Part shown: one piece after another, positions 31,533-58,212 of the stretch
Layout: the number at the start of each line of letters is the position of its first letter
Position numbering within the stretch: the first letter of the stretch is position 1
IMG/VR virus record: IMGVR_UViG_3300005758_000016
Coordinates: 1-60,088 of that record
Direction: 5' to 3' (one strand)
From: a virus
Taxonomy: Duplodnaviria > Caudoviricetes
Length of the DNA: 60,088 bases
Notes under the pieces: model-generated
What the model saw: the letters and a program-made list of their open reading frames with translations, nothing else
Databases searched by the model: none
What the model was told of the DNA's origin: nothing
Made by a program: the position numbers and the translations under genes

Positions 31533-31935
31533 GTGTACTCCTTTTGGGTCAATTATAACACGTTGGGGTGTTGGGGGCAAGTACAAAATTTGGGTGGGTT
31601 AGCTGGGTTTAGTGTCGGGTTGGGGTCGACTTGCGTAAGTTTAGGGTCAGGGGGATACTTGGGACAATTGGACAATTTAGGGTCAGGCCGTGCCATGGTG
31701 TGGTATGGCACCGTAGCGATTGTCAAAAAATCCCATATAGGCCGCATGTGGGTGGGCTGTAAGCGAAAAAGTAATCAGTAAGTCTACTAACCGCCCCTGT
31801 CTGTAATACTTTTGTTTTCAAAGTATTTTGTGAACCAAATAGCTAATATGTAACAGATTGTAAAAATTCTAGAAAATGCTTGTGCGACTGTAAAAAGCCT
31901 GTATAATAGATCACATGGACAGCAAGGAAACACAA

Positions 31936-36224: not shown

Positions 36225-36343
36225 TAATACTTTTGTTTTCAGGTGGAATTGAAAACAAAAGTATTACAGGCGGTGCGCCAAAATTATATCATAATTTTGC
36301 GGCCCCGGTCAATAGGTGTTTCCCCCTATGTTGTATTTGTACA
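36225..36343. repeat. Pre-early intergenic module copy
   Basis: TAATACTTTTGTTTTCA-N8-TGAAAACAAAAGTATTA plus leftward TTGACC..TATAAT. Confidence 0.9.
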
Positions 36344-36438
36344 AATTGCAAAAAAGTCTTGTTTGTGGGGCTGGTTTGCGTTATAATAATCCCATACCGC
36401 AGCGAAGGGCGCAGCGGAATAACCCGAAAGGTAACACT

Positions 36439-36771
36439 ATGGAAAAGACTAGCAAAACTGTCAACTATTCCCCTGAAATGACTGCAAAAATGGTTGCCGA
36501 TTATGCGGCTGGCGTGACTGTGGAAGCAATCGCTAGCGAACTGGGCAAATCGGTTCGCTCGATTGTTGCTAAACTGTCGCGCGAGGGTGTTTACCAGAAA
36601 AAGACCTACAAAACTAAAACTGGCGAGCCAGTCGTGAAAAAAGACGCTCACGCGGACGCTATCGGCGCGATTTTGCGGTTGCCTGAAAATGATATTGAAT
36701 CACTGACAAAAGCGAACAAATCGGCACTGAAGGCGATTTTCGAAGCCCTTGCAAATAGCAAGCCACTGTAA
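36439..36771 (+). CDS. T5 A2-like DNA-binding protein, paralog 2
   Basis: Highly similar to 32223-32546. Confidence 0.7.
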   Translation: MEKTSKTVNYSPEMTAKMVADYAAGVTVEAIASELGKSVRSIVAKLSREGVYQKKTYKTKTGEPVVKKDAHADAIGAILRLPENDIESLTKANKSALKAIFEALANSKPL

Positions 36772-37720: not shown

Positions 37721-38032
37721 ATGATGACTGACGCAACTAAAACCAACTACACCGAAGCACAAACCCTGGAACTGGTGACTCGCTACCAAGCGGGTGAAAC
37801 TGTAGAAGCCTTGGCCGAGGCTGTGGGCAAGAGTGTACGCAGCGTGGTAGCCAAGCTCAGCCGCGAAGGTGTGTATCAAGCCAAGACCAAGAGCAAGGGC
37901 ACTGCTCGCGTTACCAAGGCTGCACTGACCGGTTTGCTGGAAAGCAAGCTGGGCATGGACCCCGGCAGCCTGGAAAGCCTGCAAAAGGCTTCACACGACC
38001 AACTGGAAGCACTGGTTGACCGGGTAGTTTAA
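37721..38032 (+). CDS. T5 A2-like DNA-binding protein, paralog 3
   Basis: NYT..GKSVRSVVAKLSREGVY..ESL.KA. Confidence 0.7.
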   Translation: MMTDATKTNYTEAQTLELVTRYQAGETVEALAEAVGKSVRSVVAKLSREGVYQAKTKSKGTARVTKAALTGLLESKLGMDPGSLESLQKASHDQLEALVDRVV

Positions 38033-38230: not shown

Positions 38231-38259
38231 TTGAACTTATACTTAAACTACTGTATAAT
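38231..38259 (+). promoter_or_regulatory. Sigma70 promoter of RNA operon
   Basis: TTGAAC-17 nt-TATAAT; a second one, TTGATC-17 nt-TATAAT, at 38056-38084. Confidence 0.7.
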
Positions 38260-38358: not shown

Positions 38359-38541
38359 CTAAAGCGAAAGCTATCAGCTACTTGCTGGTAGTGCTAAGCA
38401 AAAACAGAAGTTACCGTTGTGCCAACCCCTATGCGATCTTAGTTCAGACAGTGCAATCGCCGCACTAGCGTTAGGATGTACCGGCAGTGTGGGCCAGTTC
38501 GCAGCTCAGGGTTTTGCTTGCAGTGATAGCTTTCGCTTTAG
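38359..38541 (+). ncRNA. Stem-closed structured RNA
   Basis: Perfect 18-bp inverted repeat CTAAAGCGAAAGCTATCA/TGATAGCTTTCGCTTTAG with nested AAGCAAAA/TTTTGCTT; no credible ORF. Confidence 0.6.
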
Positions 38542-38618
38542 GGTGTTATGAGATCATGTTTGATGAATAACAACTTAATGGCCACCGAATACTTCTCTAG
38601 TGGCCGCCCAACCAATAT

Positions 38619-38694
38619 GCTTCCATCGTCTATCGGCTAGGACACCGCCCTTTCACGGCGGGAAGGAGGGGTTCGATTCCCCCTGGAAGTACCA
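38619..38694 (+). tRNA. tRNA-Glu(UUC)
   Basis: Cloverleaf, loop CTTTCAC, encoded CCA. Confidence 0.92.
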
Positions 38695-38696
38695 AA

Positions 38697-38799
38697 ATCC
38701 ACTGATGAGCACCCTGCAATGGGGCGAAACTCTCAGGAGCGCAGTGCAAGTGTACGGACCCTAGACCCAGTCCTGCTTGCAACGCCTGAGGGTCTGGAT
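38697..38799 (+). ncRNA. Type I hammerhead ribozyme
   Basis: Stem I ATCCA/TGGAT, core CTGATGA, stem II, GAAA, stem III CTCTCAGG/CCTGAGGG, GUC cleavage triplet at 38792-38794. Confidence 0.85.
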
Positions 38800-39310
38800 G
38801 AAAACCCAGCGAAACCAGGACGCCTGTCCCTCCCGAAGCCTAGTAGCCATGCGCGAACACCGGACGGAGCTATGGCTGAAAGTGAGTAACTGGAAATGAG
38901 TAACTCCAAGGCCCGCACGGTCTATATCCAGTGCCGCCTTATCCTGTACCGGCGTTAAATGGTCTTGATGTATAGTGTGGCTACTAATCGGCCCGAGATG
39001 GTGAGGCTCCTGAAACTCGTTAAAACAGAGTTCAATAAAGTATGGTTGTGCGTAGCCAACCCGACCCTAAACCGGCGTGGTCGTTAAAGTGCGGAACCCC
39101 TCAAAGCGTAAAGAGGCAAAAAATGTACAGTGCAGGCGTTGATAGCGTAGCACAACAAGTCTCCCCTGCTGCAGATACCCAGGTTATTGTCCACAAAACC
39201 TGTTAATGTGCTGCGGTTTAGGGTCAGTGCAGTAAAACGGTGTTGGTACAGCCGGTGTAAGTCGCTGTTTGAGCAAACTAAAAACTTAAGGCTGTTGCAA
39301 CAGCCGGTGT
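38795..39310 (+). ncRNA. Candidate large structured ncRNA
   Basis: ORF-poor; long-range stems TAGTAGCCATGC/GTGTGGCTACTA and GACCCTAAACCG/CGGTTTAGGGTC; ends at a terminator. Confidence 0.45.
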
Positions 39311-39312
39311 TC

Positions 39313-39353
39313 AAAGCCCACCACAGGTCGCTCCTGTGGTGGGCTTTGTTTTG
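39313..39353 (+). terminator. Strong intrinsic terminator
   Basis: AAAGCCCACCACAGG/CCTGTGGTGGGCTTT followed by GTTTT. Confidence 0.8.
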
Positions 39354-39540
39354 CCCACACCAAGCTCACCACCAAAATTTCACACCCGGTCTGCGCCAAT
39401 TATACAGTGGTAAACCTGCAGGGTCAAGTGCATTTTCTGCATTTTGCTCGCCTGACCCTAAATTGGGGTAGTCTCCCGCAGGCACAAAAAAGCCCCCATT
39501 ATCGTCATGATAGTGGGGGCTTACTTGTTTTAAGTGGAGA

Positions 39541-39858
39541 TTACTCCGCATGGTGCGGTTTAGGGTCGAGTTTGGTCTCAATAAGTAGGAGCACGGTTTT
39601 GTTGACCTTTTCTAGACTCTCCAGTCGTTCACTATCCACCTGGAGCAGAGTGGCAAGGCGTTCGATGATCTCGCTTTTCTTTTGTGGCAGCTCACCACGC
39701 TTGTTGGTGTACACTTTTCGCTGGTAGACACCCAAACTTGAGAGCTTAGCAATTATGCTGCGACTTGGCACCTGCAGGGTTGTGGCCAGTTCCTCCACGG
39801 TCAGACCCCGCTTGTAGTCCTCGACCAGTTTATTTGTGATTTCGTTTGTGTATTTCAT
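39541..39858 (-). CDS. T5 A2-like DNA-binding protein, paralog 4 (divergent)
   Basis: YT.E..RSIIAKLSSLGVYQRK.Y..K.GE..K..ESLEKVNK. Confidence 0.65.
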   Translation of the reverse strand: MKYTNEITNKLVEDYKRGLTVEELATTLQVPSRSIIAKLSSLGVYQRKVYTNKRGELPQKKSEIIERLATLLQVDSERLESLEKVNKTVLLLIETKLDPKPHHAE

Positions 39859-40652
39859 AGCCAGGGTAATTCTGCTGTGTCAGGTTGTTTTAGTTTGTGT
39901 TTTAACTCTACATGGCGATCTGGTCGTCCCACTGGTTTAAAAATCTCACCAGAGACAAGTGGGTCTGGCATATGATCCCAGTTCTTGAAATCTAGAATCA
40001 TGTAAGGTGTTCGTTTTGTTGGGTGAGCTAACCAAATCTGTGTAAGAATTGTTTGAGTGAGTTTTGGCAGGTGACCAATTTCTGTGGCCTGAACTCCTGT
40101 TAGTGCCCAAGTAGAATCAGCAGGTTTTAGTGTACCCGCTTTCTCACCAGCTTTGTTAAGTAGCCCCTGATTACGTAGCTCCAGCAGCCGTTCTGACCCT
40201 AAATCGCACCAACTGTAGTCGTCGTGGTGGAGGGCTTCATAGAGTTTGGGTTCTAGAATGTACTCCAGGTTTGGTAGTCCACGCCATGACTGGTAAGGCA
40301 CATTCTGATACCGCTTAAATCCCATTAGGATAAGCGGAGTAAGTTGACCGTAATCTGGATTCTTGGCTTGTAGGTCTAGTATCTTACTGCGTGTTAGCCT
40401 GCTCAACTTCCATAACACCAGCGGTTTAGGATCAGTTCCGCAATTTTGTTTTAGTGTAGCTAAAATATCTGGACTACCTGCTGCATCCCGAACTAGGGTC
40501 CATGACCCAAAATATGCTACCATCTGAGGTAGCAACCAGCCGGAGTAGGTGGACAGCTTATGCAATTTAACCCAGTCTTCCAGCTCACTTTGAGTTAAAC
40601 CACTTAACATTTTGTAGTCAAGTGCATCCAAGTCTTGTTTCTTTATTAACAT
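39855..40652 (-). CDS. Hypothetical protein
   Basis: 265-aa ORF coupled to the A2-like gene. Confidence 0.7.
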   Translation of the reverse strand: MLIKKQDLDALDYKMLSGLTQSELEDWVKLHKLSTYSGWLLPQMVAYFGSWTLVRDAAGSPDILATLKQNCGTDPKPLVLWKLSRLTRSKILDLQAKNPDYGQLTPLILMGFKRYQNVPYQSWRGLPNLEYILEPKLYEALHHDDYSWCDLGSERLLELRNQGLLNKAGEKAGTLKPADSTWALTGVQATEIGHLPKLTQTILTQIWLAHPTKRTPYMILDFKNWDHMPDPLVSGEIFKPVGRPDRHVELKHKLKQPDTAELPWL

Positions 40653-45400: not shown

Positions 45401-45552
45401 GTTTTCTTACTAAGCACCCATGTATTTGTAGTATTTTCGTGTTGTGACCACTCAATCGTATCGCCCACACTCCAGCCTACCTGGTCTAATAATTCCGGCG
45501 GTAGTTCTATGTAGAATTCGCCGCTTTCGTCTTGTTGTACTTTGATTACCAT
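45397..45552 (-). CDS. AbrB/MazE-like small DNA-binding protein
   Basis: IELP.ELL..VGW..GD.IEW. Confidence 0.6.
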   Translation of the reverse strand: MVIKVQQDESGEFYIELPPELLDQVGWSVGDTIEWSQHENTTNTWVLSKKT

Positions 45553-46466
45553 TGTGCTTCTCCTGGAATAAGTTTGCGATGCTGAATCCAGCCACGCAGG
45601 TTGCCACTCCACAGGTCGCCATTAGCACTTACGTGAGTAACTCCGTATTCCCACGTTTCTGGTTCGTAGTTGCAATAGGTACGTAAGTCCATTGGTGTAG
45701 CCTGGTGCTCAACTGGAGAGGCGTGACACGGCTGTGAATTGATTAACTGGTCAAAGATTTTTTGAGCCTTCTCGATACTATCATCGTTCTTACGATACGA
45801 CACTTGAGCACAACAGCTAGCGCTGATAATACGTGCCGTTTCTGCACTAATATACTGATCGTTGCTATCAACGTAATGCAGCACGCCAGTATGAGAATCG
45901 CGATAGGTAGTGACATAGGGAACATGCCATTCTCCAGGTTGTAAGTGTTGCGGTGTGGAGGCATTGTAGGCATCCCACATAGCTACCGCAAGTTGGTGAA
46001 TTTCAGGCTGTGCATCAGCATGTGCACGCAGCCAAAAGAAGTTACGCCACTCAGTACCACTAATAACCGTTTTCATTGTCATCCACGGTTCAGTAATCCT
46101 GTTAGCAATTTGTTTGTGCAAGCCTACACGGTCTGCAAGTGCCCATGCCCAGTGAATAGCATCGTCCATTGCTCGACGCCAGATAAACTTGGCATCAGCC
46201 AGGTCGTTATCTGTTAGTTCCGCCTTGGCTTGCATTCCAGGCTGATTTTTACCCCAGTGAACTGGTGTAGCTGGGTGGTTGCGAATATGTTCGTGCATAG
46301 TCTTGACTGGAATAGCACGACTACTGGCACTATTCTTAGACAGCATACGATGAGTATTCAACTCCGCCAGGATAAATCGTGGATACTCAATCTCCATGGT
46401 GGTCATTCGAGTACCTTGGGGACTAACTGAATCAGCTAGGATTTTCGCAGAGATCTGTGATTGCAT
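45546..46466 (-). CDS. thyX: Flavin-dependent thymidylate synthase
   Basis: AELNTHR..S.NSASSRAIP, HKQ.ANR..EP, LR.H.DAQPEI. Confidence 0.85.
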   Translation of the reverse strand: MQSQISAKILADSVSPQGTRMTTMEIEYPRFILAELNTHRMLSKNSASSRAIPVKTMHEHIRNHPATPVHWGKNQPGMQAKAELTDNDLADAKFIWRRAMDDAIHWAWALADRVGLHKQIANRITEPWMTMKTVISGTEWRNFFWLRAHADAQPEIHQLAVAMWDAYNASTPQHLQPGEWHVPYVTTYRDSHTGVLHYVDSNDQYISAETARIISASCCAQVSYRKNDDSIEKAQKIFDQLINSQPCHASPVEHQATPMDLRTYCNYEPETWEYGVTHVSANGDLWSGNLRGWIQHRKLIPGEAQW

Positions 46467-48582: not shown

Positions 48583-49107
48583 ATGAAGAAACCACACAAA
48601 CCAGGACCACAACAGGCAGCACGAATGAACAACATCCGCGAACAAATTGAACTAGATACAGTTGTAGGTAAGATCGAACAACTAAACAAGCCGTTTGACC
48701 TAAGCAAACACTTGCCAGGCACTAGTGCTAGTGATTTACCAAAAGCAATTCCAGATAACGTACAGATTTCGCCAGAAACATTAGCTGCAATCCAAAAACA
48801 ATTTGGTGCAGTTAAACACGATCAAGATAAACTACCACTACACCTTCTTTCCACAGAAGCACTAAACCAAACTGCGGCAGTATTAAAGTTTGGAGCACAA
48901 AAGTATGCTGAACATAACTGGCGCAAAGGCTTTGCATGGAGCCGACCCTTAGCTGCAGCAATGCGTCATCTTACCGCGTTTAATGCTGGTGAAGACCGTG
49001 ACCCAGAATCGGGAATATCACACCTTGCACATGCAGCTTGTTGCATTATGTTTTTATTGGAGTTCGAAAAAACTCACCCACACTTAGATGACAGATACAA
49101 ACCATAA
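48583..49107 (+). CDS. dATP/dGTP diphosphohydrolase (DUF5664-like)
   Basis: K.D..K..L..FGA.KY..NW.KG..AA.RH..DPESG..HLAHA.C...FL. Confidence 0.85.
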   Translation: MKKPHKPGPQQAARMNNIREQIELDTVVGKIEQLNKPFDLSKHLPGTSASDLPKAIPDNVQISPETLAAIQKQFGAVKHDQDKLPLHLLSTEALNQTAAVLKFGAQKYAEHNWRKGFAWSRPLAAAMRHLTAFNAGEDRDPESGISHLAHAACCIMFLLEFEKTHPHLDDRYKP

Positions 49108-56210: not shown

Positions 56211-56915
56211 ATGAATATTGGAATTTATGCTCTATATTGGTGGGAGCAAGACATAGTGTATGTCGGAAAAAGCAAAGATTTAAATCTTCGTAAGTACGAA
56301 CATTTAAGACTAATGCAAACTGGAAAGCATACAAAAAAGGTACAAAGTGCTTTTGACTTGTACGGGTTACCAGATTTCATCACAGTACAGCTTTGTGATA
56401 TTGCACAATTAGATGAATTAGAAGTATTTTGGATACAAGAACTAGATGCTTTGGGTTTATCTGGATTAAATAAATGTCCAGGAGGGCAAGATGTTGGTAG
56501 AGATACAACGCACTCAGCCTCCAAGTTTTCTCACCACCAAATACTACAGGTAGTAGACTTATTAATACAAGGTGTACAATACAAAGATATTGTAGATATT
56601 ACCGGAGTATCTAAACCAGTAGTAAGTACCATACTAAATCAATCAAAACACACTTGGATACCAGCAGAGCTAAAAACTGCACTAGATATAGAAAAGTCTA
56701 GAAGAATGTTGTTACCTGCACTGGATAGTTCTACTAAAAACTACTTTATAAAGAGTCCTAATGGTCGTATCTATAAAGTAGATAATATATCCGAATTTGC
56801 CAGAAATCATAACCTTTTGGGCACAAAACTAAACGAAGTTTTGAGAGAAAAACGTAACCAACATTGTGGCTGGACACGGCCTACTGAAAAGGATTTGCTA
56901 AATGTCGTCAATTAA
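56211..56915 (+). CDS. GIY-YIG endonuclease
   Basis: GIY..YVGKS..R..H..E..N; C-terminal DNA-binding-like region. Confidence 0.8.
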   Translation: MNIGIYALYWWEQDIVYVGKSKDLNLRKYEHLRLMQTGKHTKKVQSAFDLYGLPDFITVQLCDIAQLDELEVFWIQELDALGLSGLNKCPGGQDVGRDTTHSASKFSHHQILQVVDLLIQGVQYKDIVDITGVSKPVVSTILNQSKHTWIPAELKTALDIEKSRRMLLPALDSSTKNYFIKSPNGRIYKVDNISEFARNHNLLGTKLNEVLREKRNQHCGWTRPTEKDLLNVVN

Positions 56916-58212
56916 TCGTAAAAATAAATTTGCTGCCGCTAATAGCGTGGGAACACAAGTACCAAGTATTAGTGCAGAAAATCAATTGCGTAGGGTGACG
57001 TTAGCATCAATGTTATACGAAAACCAGTTCTACCTAGACGGTAAGTCCCACGCAGAATTGGTGCGAGATCTTGTAGCCCGAGTTAGCCCAGAAAAGGTTG
57101 CCGACTTGGCTGAAGTGGCGCGAAGCAAATTTAAGCTGCGTCATATTCCTCTGCTGCTTGCCCGTGAACTGGCTCGCAGTGGTCGCCTACAAGCACAAAC
57201 GCTGACTAATATCATTCAGCGTCCGGACGAAATGTCCGAGTTCCTGTCAATCTACTGGCAGGAAGGCAAAACTGCTGTGTCTAACCAAATCAAAAAAGGT
57301 TTGGCGGCTTGTTTCCACAAGTTTAACGAGTACCAGCTTGCCAAGTGGAACAAGAACCGTGCCGCGATTAAGCTACGCGACGTGATGTTCTTGACCCACC
57401 CTAAACCGCAGAGTGCTCAACAAGCTGAACTTTTCAAGCGAATTGCTAGTGATACGCTTGAAACCCCAGATACCTGGGAGGTGCAACTGAGCGCAGGCGC
57501 AGACAAGTGTGAAACATTCACACGACTTATCCAAGAAAACAAACTTGGTGCTCTAGCTTTCTTGCGTAACTTGCGTAACATGACACAGAGTGGCGTAGCG
57601 GAGTCCCTTATCCGTAGTTACGGCTCCAACGTAGATGTGTCACGAGTACTGCCGTTTCGCTTTATTGCGGCGGCACGCATTGTTCCTCAATACGAGGATA
57701 TGTTGGAACAAATGATGTTCCGAGCACTTGCCACAGTACCTAAACTGCCTGGCAAGACTGTGTTAGTTATCGACGTGAGTGGCTCCATGTTTGGTACTAA
57801 CATCAGTGCAAAAAGTGACCTAGACCGCTTTGACGCGGCCGCAGCACTGGCAATTCTTTGCCGTGAAATCTGCGAGACTGTAGAAATCTACTCGTTTAGC
57901 TACGATGCCGTACGAGTCGCACCTCGTCGTGGATTTGCGCTGGTAGAAGCAATTAGTGCTTCGCAGCCTCACGGAGGCACACAGCTAGGCACAGCAATGC
58001 GTACAATTGACTCACAAACTGCTTACGATCGTGTAATCGTATTTACCGACGAGCAAAGCTATGACCGCCCACAATCGCCGCGCGGCAAGGGTTATCTGGT
58101 GAACGTGGCCAGCTACCAACACGGCGTGAATCATAGTGCTTGGCATGAGATCAATGGCTTTAGTGAAGCCATCATTGACTACATTCAAGCGTTTGAGGAG
58201 TCAAACCAGTAA
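56902..58212 (+). CDS. Ro60/Rsr TROVE-vWA RNA-binding protein
   Basis: E..FY, RPDE, KF.EYQLAK, TWE..LS, LRNLRN, LPFRF, DVSGSM (MIDAS), TDEQ. Confidence 0.92.
   Translation: MSSINRKNKFAAANSVGTQVPSISAENQLRRVTLASMLYENQFYLDGKSHAELVRDLVARVSPEKVADLAEVARSKFKLRHIPLLLARELARSGRLQAQTLTNIIQRPDEMSEFLSIYWQEGKTAVSNQIKKGLAACFHKFNEYQLAKWNKNRAAIKLRDVMFLTHPKPQSAQQAELFKRIASDTLETPDTWEVQLSAGADKCETFTRLIQENKLGALAFLRNLRNMTQSGVAESLIRSYGSNVDVSRVLPFRFIAAARIVPQYEDMLEQMMFRALATVPKLPGKTVLVIDVSGSMFGTNISAKSDLDRFDAAAALAILCREICETVEIYSFSYDAVRVAPRRGFALVEAISASQPHGGTQLGTAMRTIDSQTAYDRVIVFTDEQSYDRPQSPRGKGYLVNVASYQHGVNHSAWHEINGFSEAIIDYIQAFEESNQ

Follow-up and report, generated by a model that had tools for sequence, protein, structure and literature searches.

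The sequence analysed here, referred to as the window, is an IMG/VR record of 60,088 bp, estimated to be 57% complete. It encodes the structural module of a tailed phage (terminase, portal, protease/capsid and major tail protein) and carries 15 tRNA genes. When the portal protein was compared with prokaryote genomes, the only match was 28% identical, and no host was therefore inferred. The subject of this report is a non-coding locus which is flanked by three small paralogous helix-turn-helix proteins of the same PHROG, encoded at 36316-36771 (+), 37721-38032 (+) and 39541-39858 (-). Along the plus strand, the locus consists of a promoter candidate, a structured module, a tRNA-Glu gene, a predicted hammerhead ribozyme at 38697-38799 and a non-coding RNA which ends at an intrinsic terminator. 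A summary of the features is shown in Table 1.

Table 1. Features of the tRNA-Glu and hammerhead locus in the window.
Feature	Position	Strand	Remarks
Sigma-70-like promoter candidate for the tRNA/ribozyme transcript	38231-38259	+	10/12 hexamer matches, by consensus only
Structured module, three-way junction closed by GGGU/GCCC	38541-38609	+	pattern in 15/18 sequences examined
tRNA-Glu (anticodon UUC), encoded CCA at 38692-38694	38619-38694	+	ARAGORN; Rfam tRNA model, 48 bits
Stem I, 5' strand (ATCCA)	38697-38701	+	pairs with TGGAT 38795-38799
Catalytic core CUGAUGA (C3-A9)	38702-38708	+	invariant in 22/22 aligned members
Stem II hairpin, 17 nt	38709-38725	+	G10.1-C11.1 closing pair; loop with UGCAA
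Core G12 A13 A14 (GAA)	38726-38728	+	invariant across aligned members
Stem III, extended hairpin of 65 nt	38729-38793	+	A15.1-U16.1 closing pair, then three helices
C17, predicted scissile bond 38794/38795	38794	+	place in hammerhead consensus
Stem I, 3' strand; start of predicted 3' product	38795-38799	+	
Downstream non-coding RNA, 558 nt	38795-39352	+	predicted cleavage site to intrinsic terminator
Intrinsic terminator, 15-bp stem, 5-nt loop, U-rich tail	39313-39352	+	same element in 16/16 aligned sequences

An earlier note on this DNA had described a complete type I hammerhead, and each of the elements which it named, including the additional helices of stem III, was found at its position. 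The topology is that of type I because both ends of the RNA fall in stem I. The basal helix of stem III comprises 9 bp (38729-38737 with 38785-38793) and is followed by a middle helix (TGCAAG at 38745 with CTTGCA at 38776) and a distal helix (GGAC at 38756 with GTCC at 38770). The key pairs A38729-U38793 and G38709-C38725 are present, and the H17 position is occupied by C38794 (not G). Cleavage had been predicted to follow this base, in the triplet GUC, a position that agrees with the hammerhead consensus. The start of the ribozyme two nucleotides after the CCA of tRNA-Glu was likewise borne out: the CCA ends at 38694, a spacer AA occupies 38695-38696 and stem I begins at 38697. Stem I is short (3-5 bp) and open, with no obvious internal loop, and stem II of the window contains one A bulge or mismatch which is absent from the other members of the family described below. 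The minimum-free-energy fold of positions 38695-38805 is the hammerhead three-way junction, with an energy of only z = -1.76 relative to shuffled sequences.

A type I descriptor, composed after the site had been seen, matched one site in the window when both strands were scanned. Any descriptor match was obtained in 2 of 300 dinucleotide-preserving shuffles, both much weaker, and none of the 300 gave a match with a stem I of at least 5 bp and a stem III of at least 7 bp. By our own arithmetic, about 250,000 scanned windows might give a few comparable chance motifs. Given a post-hoc descriptor and a scan of this size, the comparative evidence was taken as decisive.

Rfam and Infernal, which the earlier note had named as a check, left the ribozyme unrecognised. 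No hammerhead match in the window reached the Rfam gathering threshold, the type I model RF00163 gave no match at E<=10, and the type III model aligned only in part, scoring 23.5 and 26.6 bits where 48.5 are required. The miss is attributed to the long stem III insert, the RF00163 model having only 45 positions in all. In the type III alignment the 3' strand of the tRNA acceptor was placed in stem III and the cut after the discriminator base; it was rejected because this would leave for stem I a stretch of 10 nt unable to form a hairpin, and because the pairing is not kept in L048, the sole relative checked (by eye). The HDV-like Rfam models gave no match in 38550-38900 at E<=10. Judged from the sequence by its core, its key pairs and its helices, the element is a hammerhead which scores below the Rfam thresholds.

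Relatives were sought by several routes. A blastn search of positions 38400-39900 against deposited phage genomes returned matches to the tRNA alone (26 records, with 4-5% query cover each), and an exact 29-nt scan of IMG/VR gave no match. The 265-aa neighbour, used as query, led to one locus (L002) without tRNA and without ribozyme core, and no match to the 595-aa ORF was found by tblastn against phage genomes. A pattern composed of a tRNA T-loop and a nearby hammerhead core returned 22 loci from IMG/VR. One of them, L016, contains a tRNA-Glu(UUC) that is separated by two bases from a hammerhead whose stem III is long; beyond the ribozyme follow about 1 kb without long ORFs and a convergent helix-turn-helix protein of 103 aa, which is 64% identical to the product (105 aa) of the window ORF 39541-39858.

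With this protein pair as query, 36 IMG/VR loci were fetched, 33 of which have sequence at the place of the ribozyme. A descriptor-positive hammerhead was present on the expected strand in 24 of the 36 loci, about 0.8-1.4 kb past the stop of the neighbouring protein, and on the opposite strand in none. The covariance model identified the ribozyme in 26 of the 36, at the same place and on the same strand. Three loci lack sequence there, and in 7 of the 33 informative relatives the sequence is present without a match to the covariance model. The ribozyme element is dispensable, since these seven do without the whole of it. Among five records of near-complete relatives (96-105 kb, two with terminal repeats), four contain a single copy and the fifth contains two. 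The fifth record (G004, from which locus L051 derives) has its two non-identical copies at 522-639 and 99954-100068 (117.2 and 98.4 bits); their location near both linear ends may be due to terminal redundancy, to the assembly of mixed sequences or to genuine duplication.

Across a family of tailed phages of about 100 kb from aquatic metagenomes, the ribozyme is conserved as a single-copy element. To evaluate its structure, the window and 21 relatives (n=22) were aligned by MAFFT without reference to any fold. Under the stated hammerhead structure 80.8% of the cells form standard pairs, as compared with 33-43% after a shift of the 3' partners by 1-3 columns, and 24 of the 32 base pairs are changed on both sides; none of 500 shuffles reached the observed pairing or covariation score. 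Changes on both sides affect 4 of the 5 pairs of stem II across the family. The closing pair A15.1-U16.1 is kept as A-U in 21 of the 22 members (the exception being a misaligned row) and G10.1-C11.1 as G-C in all 22, and the stem I pair adjoining the core is A-U in the window and U-A in 20 of the 22 members, so that the deviation of the window is a compensated one. Stem III folds into the same extended hairpin in every member, with a length of 55-65 nt (62-65 nt in 21). Also conserved in the alignment are an A before stem I, GAAA after it and UGNAA in loop II. Rapid hammerhead cleavage at low Mg2+ requires loop II to make a tertiary contact with stem I or its flanks; no pairing scheme emerged between the conserved bases.

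A leave-one-out model built from 20 relatives, with the window excluded, had a single match in the window, at 38692-38810 (67.6 bits, E 9.5e-16). RNAalifold, applied to the raw MAFFT alignment, failed to recover the hammerhead and preferred to pair the 5' strand of stem I with the 3' strand of stem III, a possible alternative conformer; the structure was therefore tested as a stated hypothesis. The alignment and the model match indicate that the ribozyme is real and is a member of a conserved family.

Upstream of the ribozyme, tRNA-Glu is present within 100 nt in 7 of the 26 ribozyme-bearing relatives; in six it is adjacent, ending 2-7 nt before stem I, and in one it lies at 97 nt. In the other 19 no tRNA was called anywhere in the fetched locus. 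The helices of the upstream module vary in sequence with the pairing kept, a CUUAAU joiner is conserved, and no Rfam match was obtained for 38541-38609. The module ends 9-17 nt before the ribozyme in relatives without tRNA and just before the tRNA in the window, and the tRNA is therefore regarded as an optional insert between the two. A second similar module occurs in tandem farther upstream in some of the relatives L025-L058. In L041, a stretch which by eye resembles a decayed tRNA-Glu, not called by ARAGORN, lies about 90 nt upstream of the ribozyme and suggests that the tRNA has been gained and lost at that spot. The earlier note had assigned to the ribozyme the separation of the tRNA from the large RNA downstream. 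What stands of this is that tRNA and ribozyme would be placed together on the 5' product; as a conserved partner of the ribozyme, with its presence in 7 of 26 relatives, the tRNA does not hold up.

Downstream of the predicted cleavage site, neither strand contains an ORF of more than 61 aa before 39042. Conservation detected by tblastx on this stretch was patchy and occurred in several frames on both strands, as expected of non-coding sequence. It begins at the first bases after the predicted cut, and blocks are shared among the relatives, in which the downstream RNA is about 0.4-0.7 kb long and ends at a terminator. The terminator of the window was read from the sequence and was not among the sites listed by the scan tool. 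Repeated small hairpin units, variable in number, are found in the downstream RNA of the relatives. The seven relatives without ribozyme show no or marginal similarity to the flanking RNA; ribozyme and flanking structured RNA thus go together, jointly present in 26 relatives and jointly absent in 7.

In the divergent locus L059, a promoter-like site (11/12, with TG) ends 13 nt before the match to the ribozyme model, and a terminator-like site lies 339 nt after the predicted cleavage site. With this promoter-like site directly before the ribozyme, cleavage in this locus could only set the 5' end of the downstream RNA. Both this layout and the co-occurrence in 26 against 7 relatives favour the view, already expressed in the earlier note, that the predicted cut sets the 5' end of the downstream RNA at 38795. 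The Rfam models of GOLLD and ROOL gave no match at gathering in the window and none at E<=1 in 38700-40000. No other Rfam family matched the downstream RNA at that limit either. The 558-nt RNA may be a new large phage RNA.

Minor features were recorded around the end of this RNA. A near-consensus sigma-70-like promoter on the minus strand, from 39427 to 39399 (11/12) and conserved in relatives, faces the terminator, and a second terminator-like hairpin at 39490-39522 (+) precedes the convergent protein gene; the two suggest a short antisense or divergent RNA. A ToxI-like match at 39460-39489 (E 0.35) was weak and was taken as chance.

Metatranscriptome contigs on the region were found in four runs from two studies, with pieces at 38885-39275. 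These contigs are assemblies and carry no information on ends or strand; they place the locus in RNA libraries. One contig, from a relative, extends from 38200 through the predicted cleavage site, with a depth of 172 in one run and 95 in another, so that either some of the RNA is uncleaved or DNA is present as a contaminant. The depth of pieces at 38890-39303 was 10^3-10^4 as against about 170 upstream, figures which provide no ranking of the parts, may reflect other strains and serve as a hint at most. Strand clues were read by eye: one helix is U-G on the plus strand in four members and C-G in a fifth, and one terminator contains a C-A mismatch which would suit the minus strand.

The 22 loci returned by the T-loop pattern extend beyond the family of the window. 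At 12 of them a tRNA called by ARAGORN (Asp, Arg-ACG, Arg-UCU, Leu-UAA, Trp, Gly and Glu being represented) ends 5-12 nt before CUGAUGA and is followed by a full type I hammerhead; three others have a hammerhead but no called tRNA, and seven are unconvincing. As the pattern demanded a T-loop, these counts bear on recurrence and not on frequency. Other, unrelated families are represented by L004/L007; L005; L006/L015/L020/L021; L009/L011/L013/L018; L014; L017; and L019, and the placement of a predicted type I hammerhead directly 3' of a tRNA recurs among several unrelated phage families. In some cases the ribozyme is part of a long tRNA array, and in some its loop II is complementary to the linker that precedes stem I. 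By reading, a ribosome-binding site and a start codon follow the ribozyme in some of these families.

Taken as a whole, the data are best explained by a functional type I hammerhead at 38697-38799 which fixes the 5' end of the downstream RNA, and we consider this explanation probable. Against it stand the sub-threshold Rfam scores, the alternative pairing preferred by RNAalifold, the contig that bridges the predicted cleavage site, the minus-strand promoter that faces the terminator, the dispensability of the element (7 of 33 relatives) and the stem II bulge or mismatch of the window. One long transcript would start at the promoter-like site and continue through the module, tRNA-Glu, the ribozyme and the 558-nt RNA to the terminator. 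Once stems I-III have formed, the 2'-OH of C38794 would attack the adjacent phosphate, yielding a 5' product composed of leader, tRNA and ribozyme with a terminal 2',3'-cyclic phosphate, and a 3' product beginning at U38795 with a 5'-OH. As stem I has only 3-5 bp and is open, the products should separate readily. Self-cleavage would be constitutive, and its outcome would be a downstream RNA with a fixed 5' end and no triphosphate, uncoupled from the upstream tRNA, module and promoter. The motif, its conservation and covariation and its association with the flanking RNA are direct observations, whereas cleavage, the end chemistry, co-transcription and a benefit to the downstream RNA, in stability or in correct folding, are what we infer. 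RtcB ligase was found in none of five related records, which gives no support for ligation or circularisation.

The position of the ribozyme 2 nt past the CCA also invites the reading that it serves mainly as a tRNA 3'-end processor, the hammerhead equivalent of an HDV-like theta ribozyme; for theta ribozymes, Kienbeck et al. 2024 (PMC10879173) propose a role at the tRNA 3' trailer. The six relatives with tRNA-Glu 2-7 nt before stem I agree with such a role, as do the 12 of 22 pattern-matched loci of other families with a tRNA 5-12 nt before CUGAUGA. A cut at the 3' side would, however, leave on the tRNA a structured trailer of about 100 nt with a cyclic phosphate, and no tRNA was called in 19 of the 26 ribozyme-bearing relatives. 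With the cut at the far side and the tRNA usually absent, tRNA 3' processing is very unlikely to be the main function. That the hammerhead fold acts as a structural three-way junction, or as a switch whose cleavage depends on a certain condition or on the binding of a factor, and is no constitutive cutter, would be consistent with the conserved length of stem III (62-65 nt in 21 of 22) and its conserved apical loop, with the alternative pairing predicted by RNAalifold and with the RNA-library contig that bridges the cleavage site. Yet the unpaired catalytic bases, A15.1-U16.1 and H17 are kept while the helices change sequence, which a mere junction would not demand, and the short open stem I is suited to product release; we regard a purely structural or switching element as unlikely.

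A chance motif in an intergenic stretch would have in its favour the shortness of the motif, the fold energy (z = -1.76), the sub-threshold Rfam scores and our estimate that the scanning of very many windows would yield a few matches. Syntenic conservation with covariation across the 26 relatives, together with the leave-one-out match at an E of about 1e-15, makes it scarcely credible. The explanation preferred here, a hammerhead that fixes the 5' end of the downstream RNA, can be extended, though only tentatively: self-cleavage would be how a novel class of large phage non-coding RNA with high expression is produced, and type I hammerheads would be a general 'punctuation' of phages. The fixed 5'-OH end might then be required by the RNA for stability or assembly, a proposal for which we claim limited confidence. 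It is conceivable, and is put forward with similar reserve, that such punctuation stands directly after tRNA genes or promoters in several unrelated lineages, where it sets the 5' ends of the RNAs downstream and complements RNase P and theta ribozymes.

The hammerheads known from bacteria and phages number in the hundreds, and their biological roles are described as mostly open in a 2019 review (PMC6765202). Phage and prophage hammerheads with a proposed role in the processing of long transcripts are among them (Perreault et al. 2011, PMC3088659). With type I hammerheads (RF00163; clan CL00010) the family of the window shares the identical core, the three helices, the open stem I and the GUC site, and with the hammerheads of Perreault et al. 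2011 the intergenic location in phages and the proposed transcript processing. It differs from them by a stem III in the form of a three-segment hairpin of 62-65 nt and by a stem I of 3-5 bp with no obvious internal loop. Its conserved place is where a large non-coding RNA begins at the 5' side, instead of next to protein genes.

Theta ribozymes are minimal HDV-like ribozymes adjoining phage tRNAs (Kienbeck et al. 2024, PMC10879173). Like them, the element of the window is a predicted self-cleaving RNA directly 3' of a phage tRNA gene. It belongs, however, to another class, with a hammerhead fold in place of a nested double pseudoknot, and is predicted to cut at its own 3' side, whereas theta ribozymes cut at their 5' edge, the junction of tRNA and ribozyme. 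In the family of the window, moreover, the tRNA is optional and the phages are from aquatic metagenomes, whereas theta ribozymes have been described from gut phages. The word 'hammerhead' is absent from Kienbeck et al. 2024 (PMC10879173).

GOLLD and ROOL are large phage RNAs found near tRNAs, and co-transcription with tRNA has been suggested for them (Weinberg et al. 2017, PMC5737381). The downstream RNA of the window resembles both in being large, structured, phage-borne and tRNA-adjacent. We know of no hammerhead described for GOLLD or ROOL. A search of full-text literature, with subscription journals and supplements outside its scope, returned no hammerheads adjoining phage tRNAs or heading a large phage RNA; examples may be present in the supplements of PMC3088659 and PMC10879173. 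The ribozyme class itself is known, and what is new is the context (tRNA-adjacent and heading a large RNA) together with the variant with a long stem III.

The hammerhead described here has a fixed and conserved partner, a structured, terminator-ended RNA in aquatic phages of about 100 kb, and this fixed partner makes the job of a phage ribozyme open to direct experiment. Hammerheads which carry long stem III inserts are missed by the curated Rfam models. Self-cleaving RNAs adjacent to phage tRNAs are not limited to HDV-like theta ribozymes.

Several other features of the phage genome were noted. The motif GACCCTAA occurs in 15 copies in the window, as compared with 1.2 expected (for example at 31641, 31677, 38035, 39454, 40735 and 54526). 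It usually follows TT or CT and lies mostly on the coding strand of nearby genes, with two copies just upstream of packaging and structural genes; from its distribution, GACCCTAA is a candidate promoter or regulator site of the phage. Two ORFs at 48583-49107 (+) and 45546-46466 (-), one with the N-terminal domain of a dATP/dGTP diphosphohydrolase and the other ThyX-like, hint at a modified nucleotide metabolism. A Ro60-like protein with TROVE and vWA domains is encoded among tRNA genes at 56902-58212 (+), and TROVE matches were present in 4 of the 5 records searched, namely the window itself and 3 of the 4 near-complete relatives.
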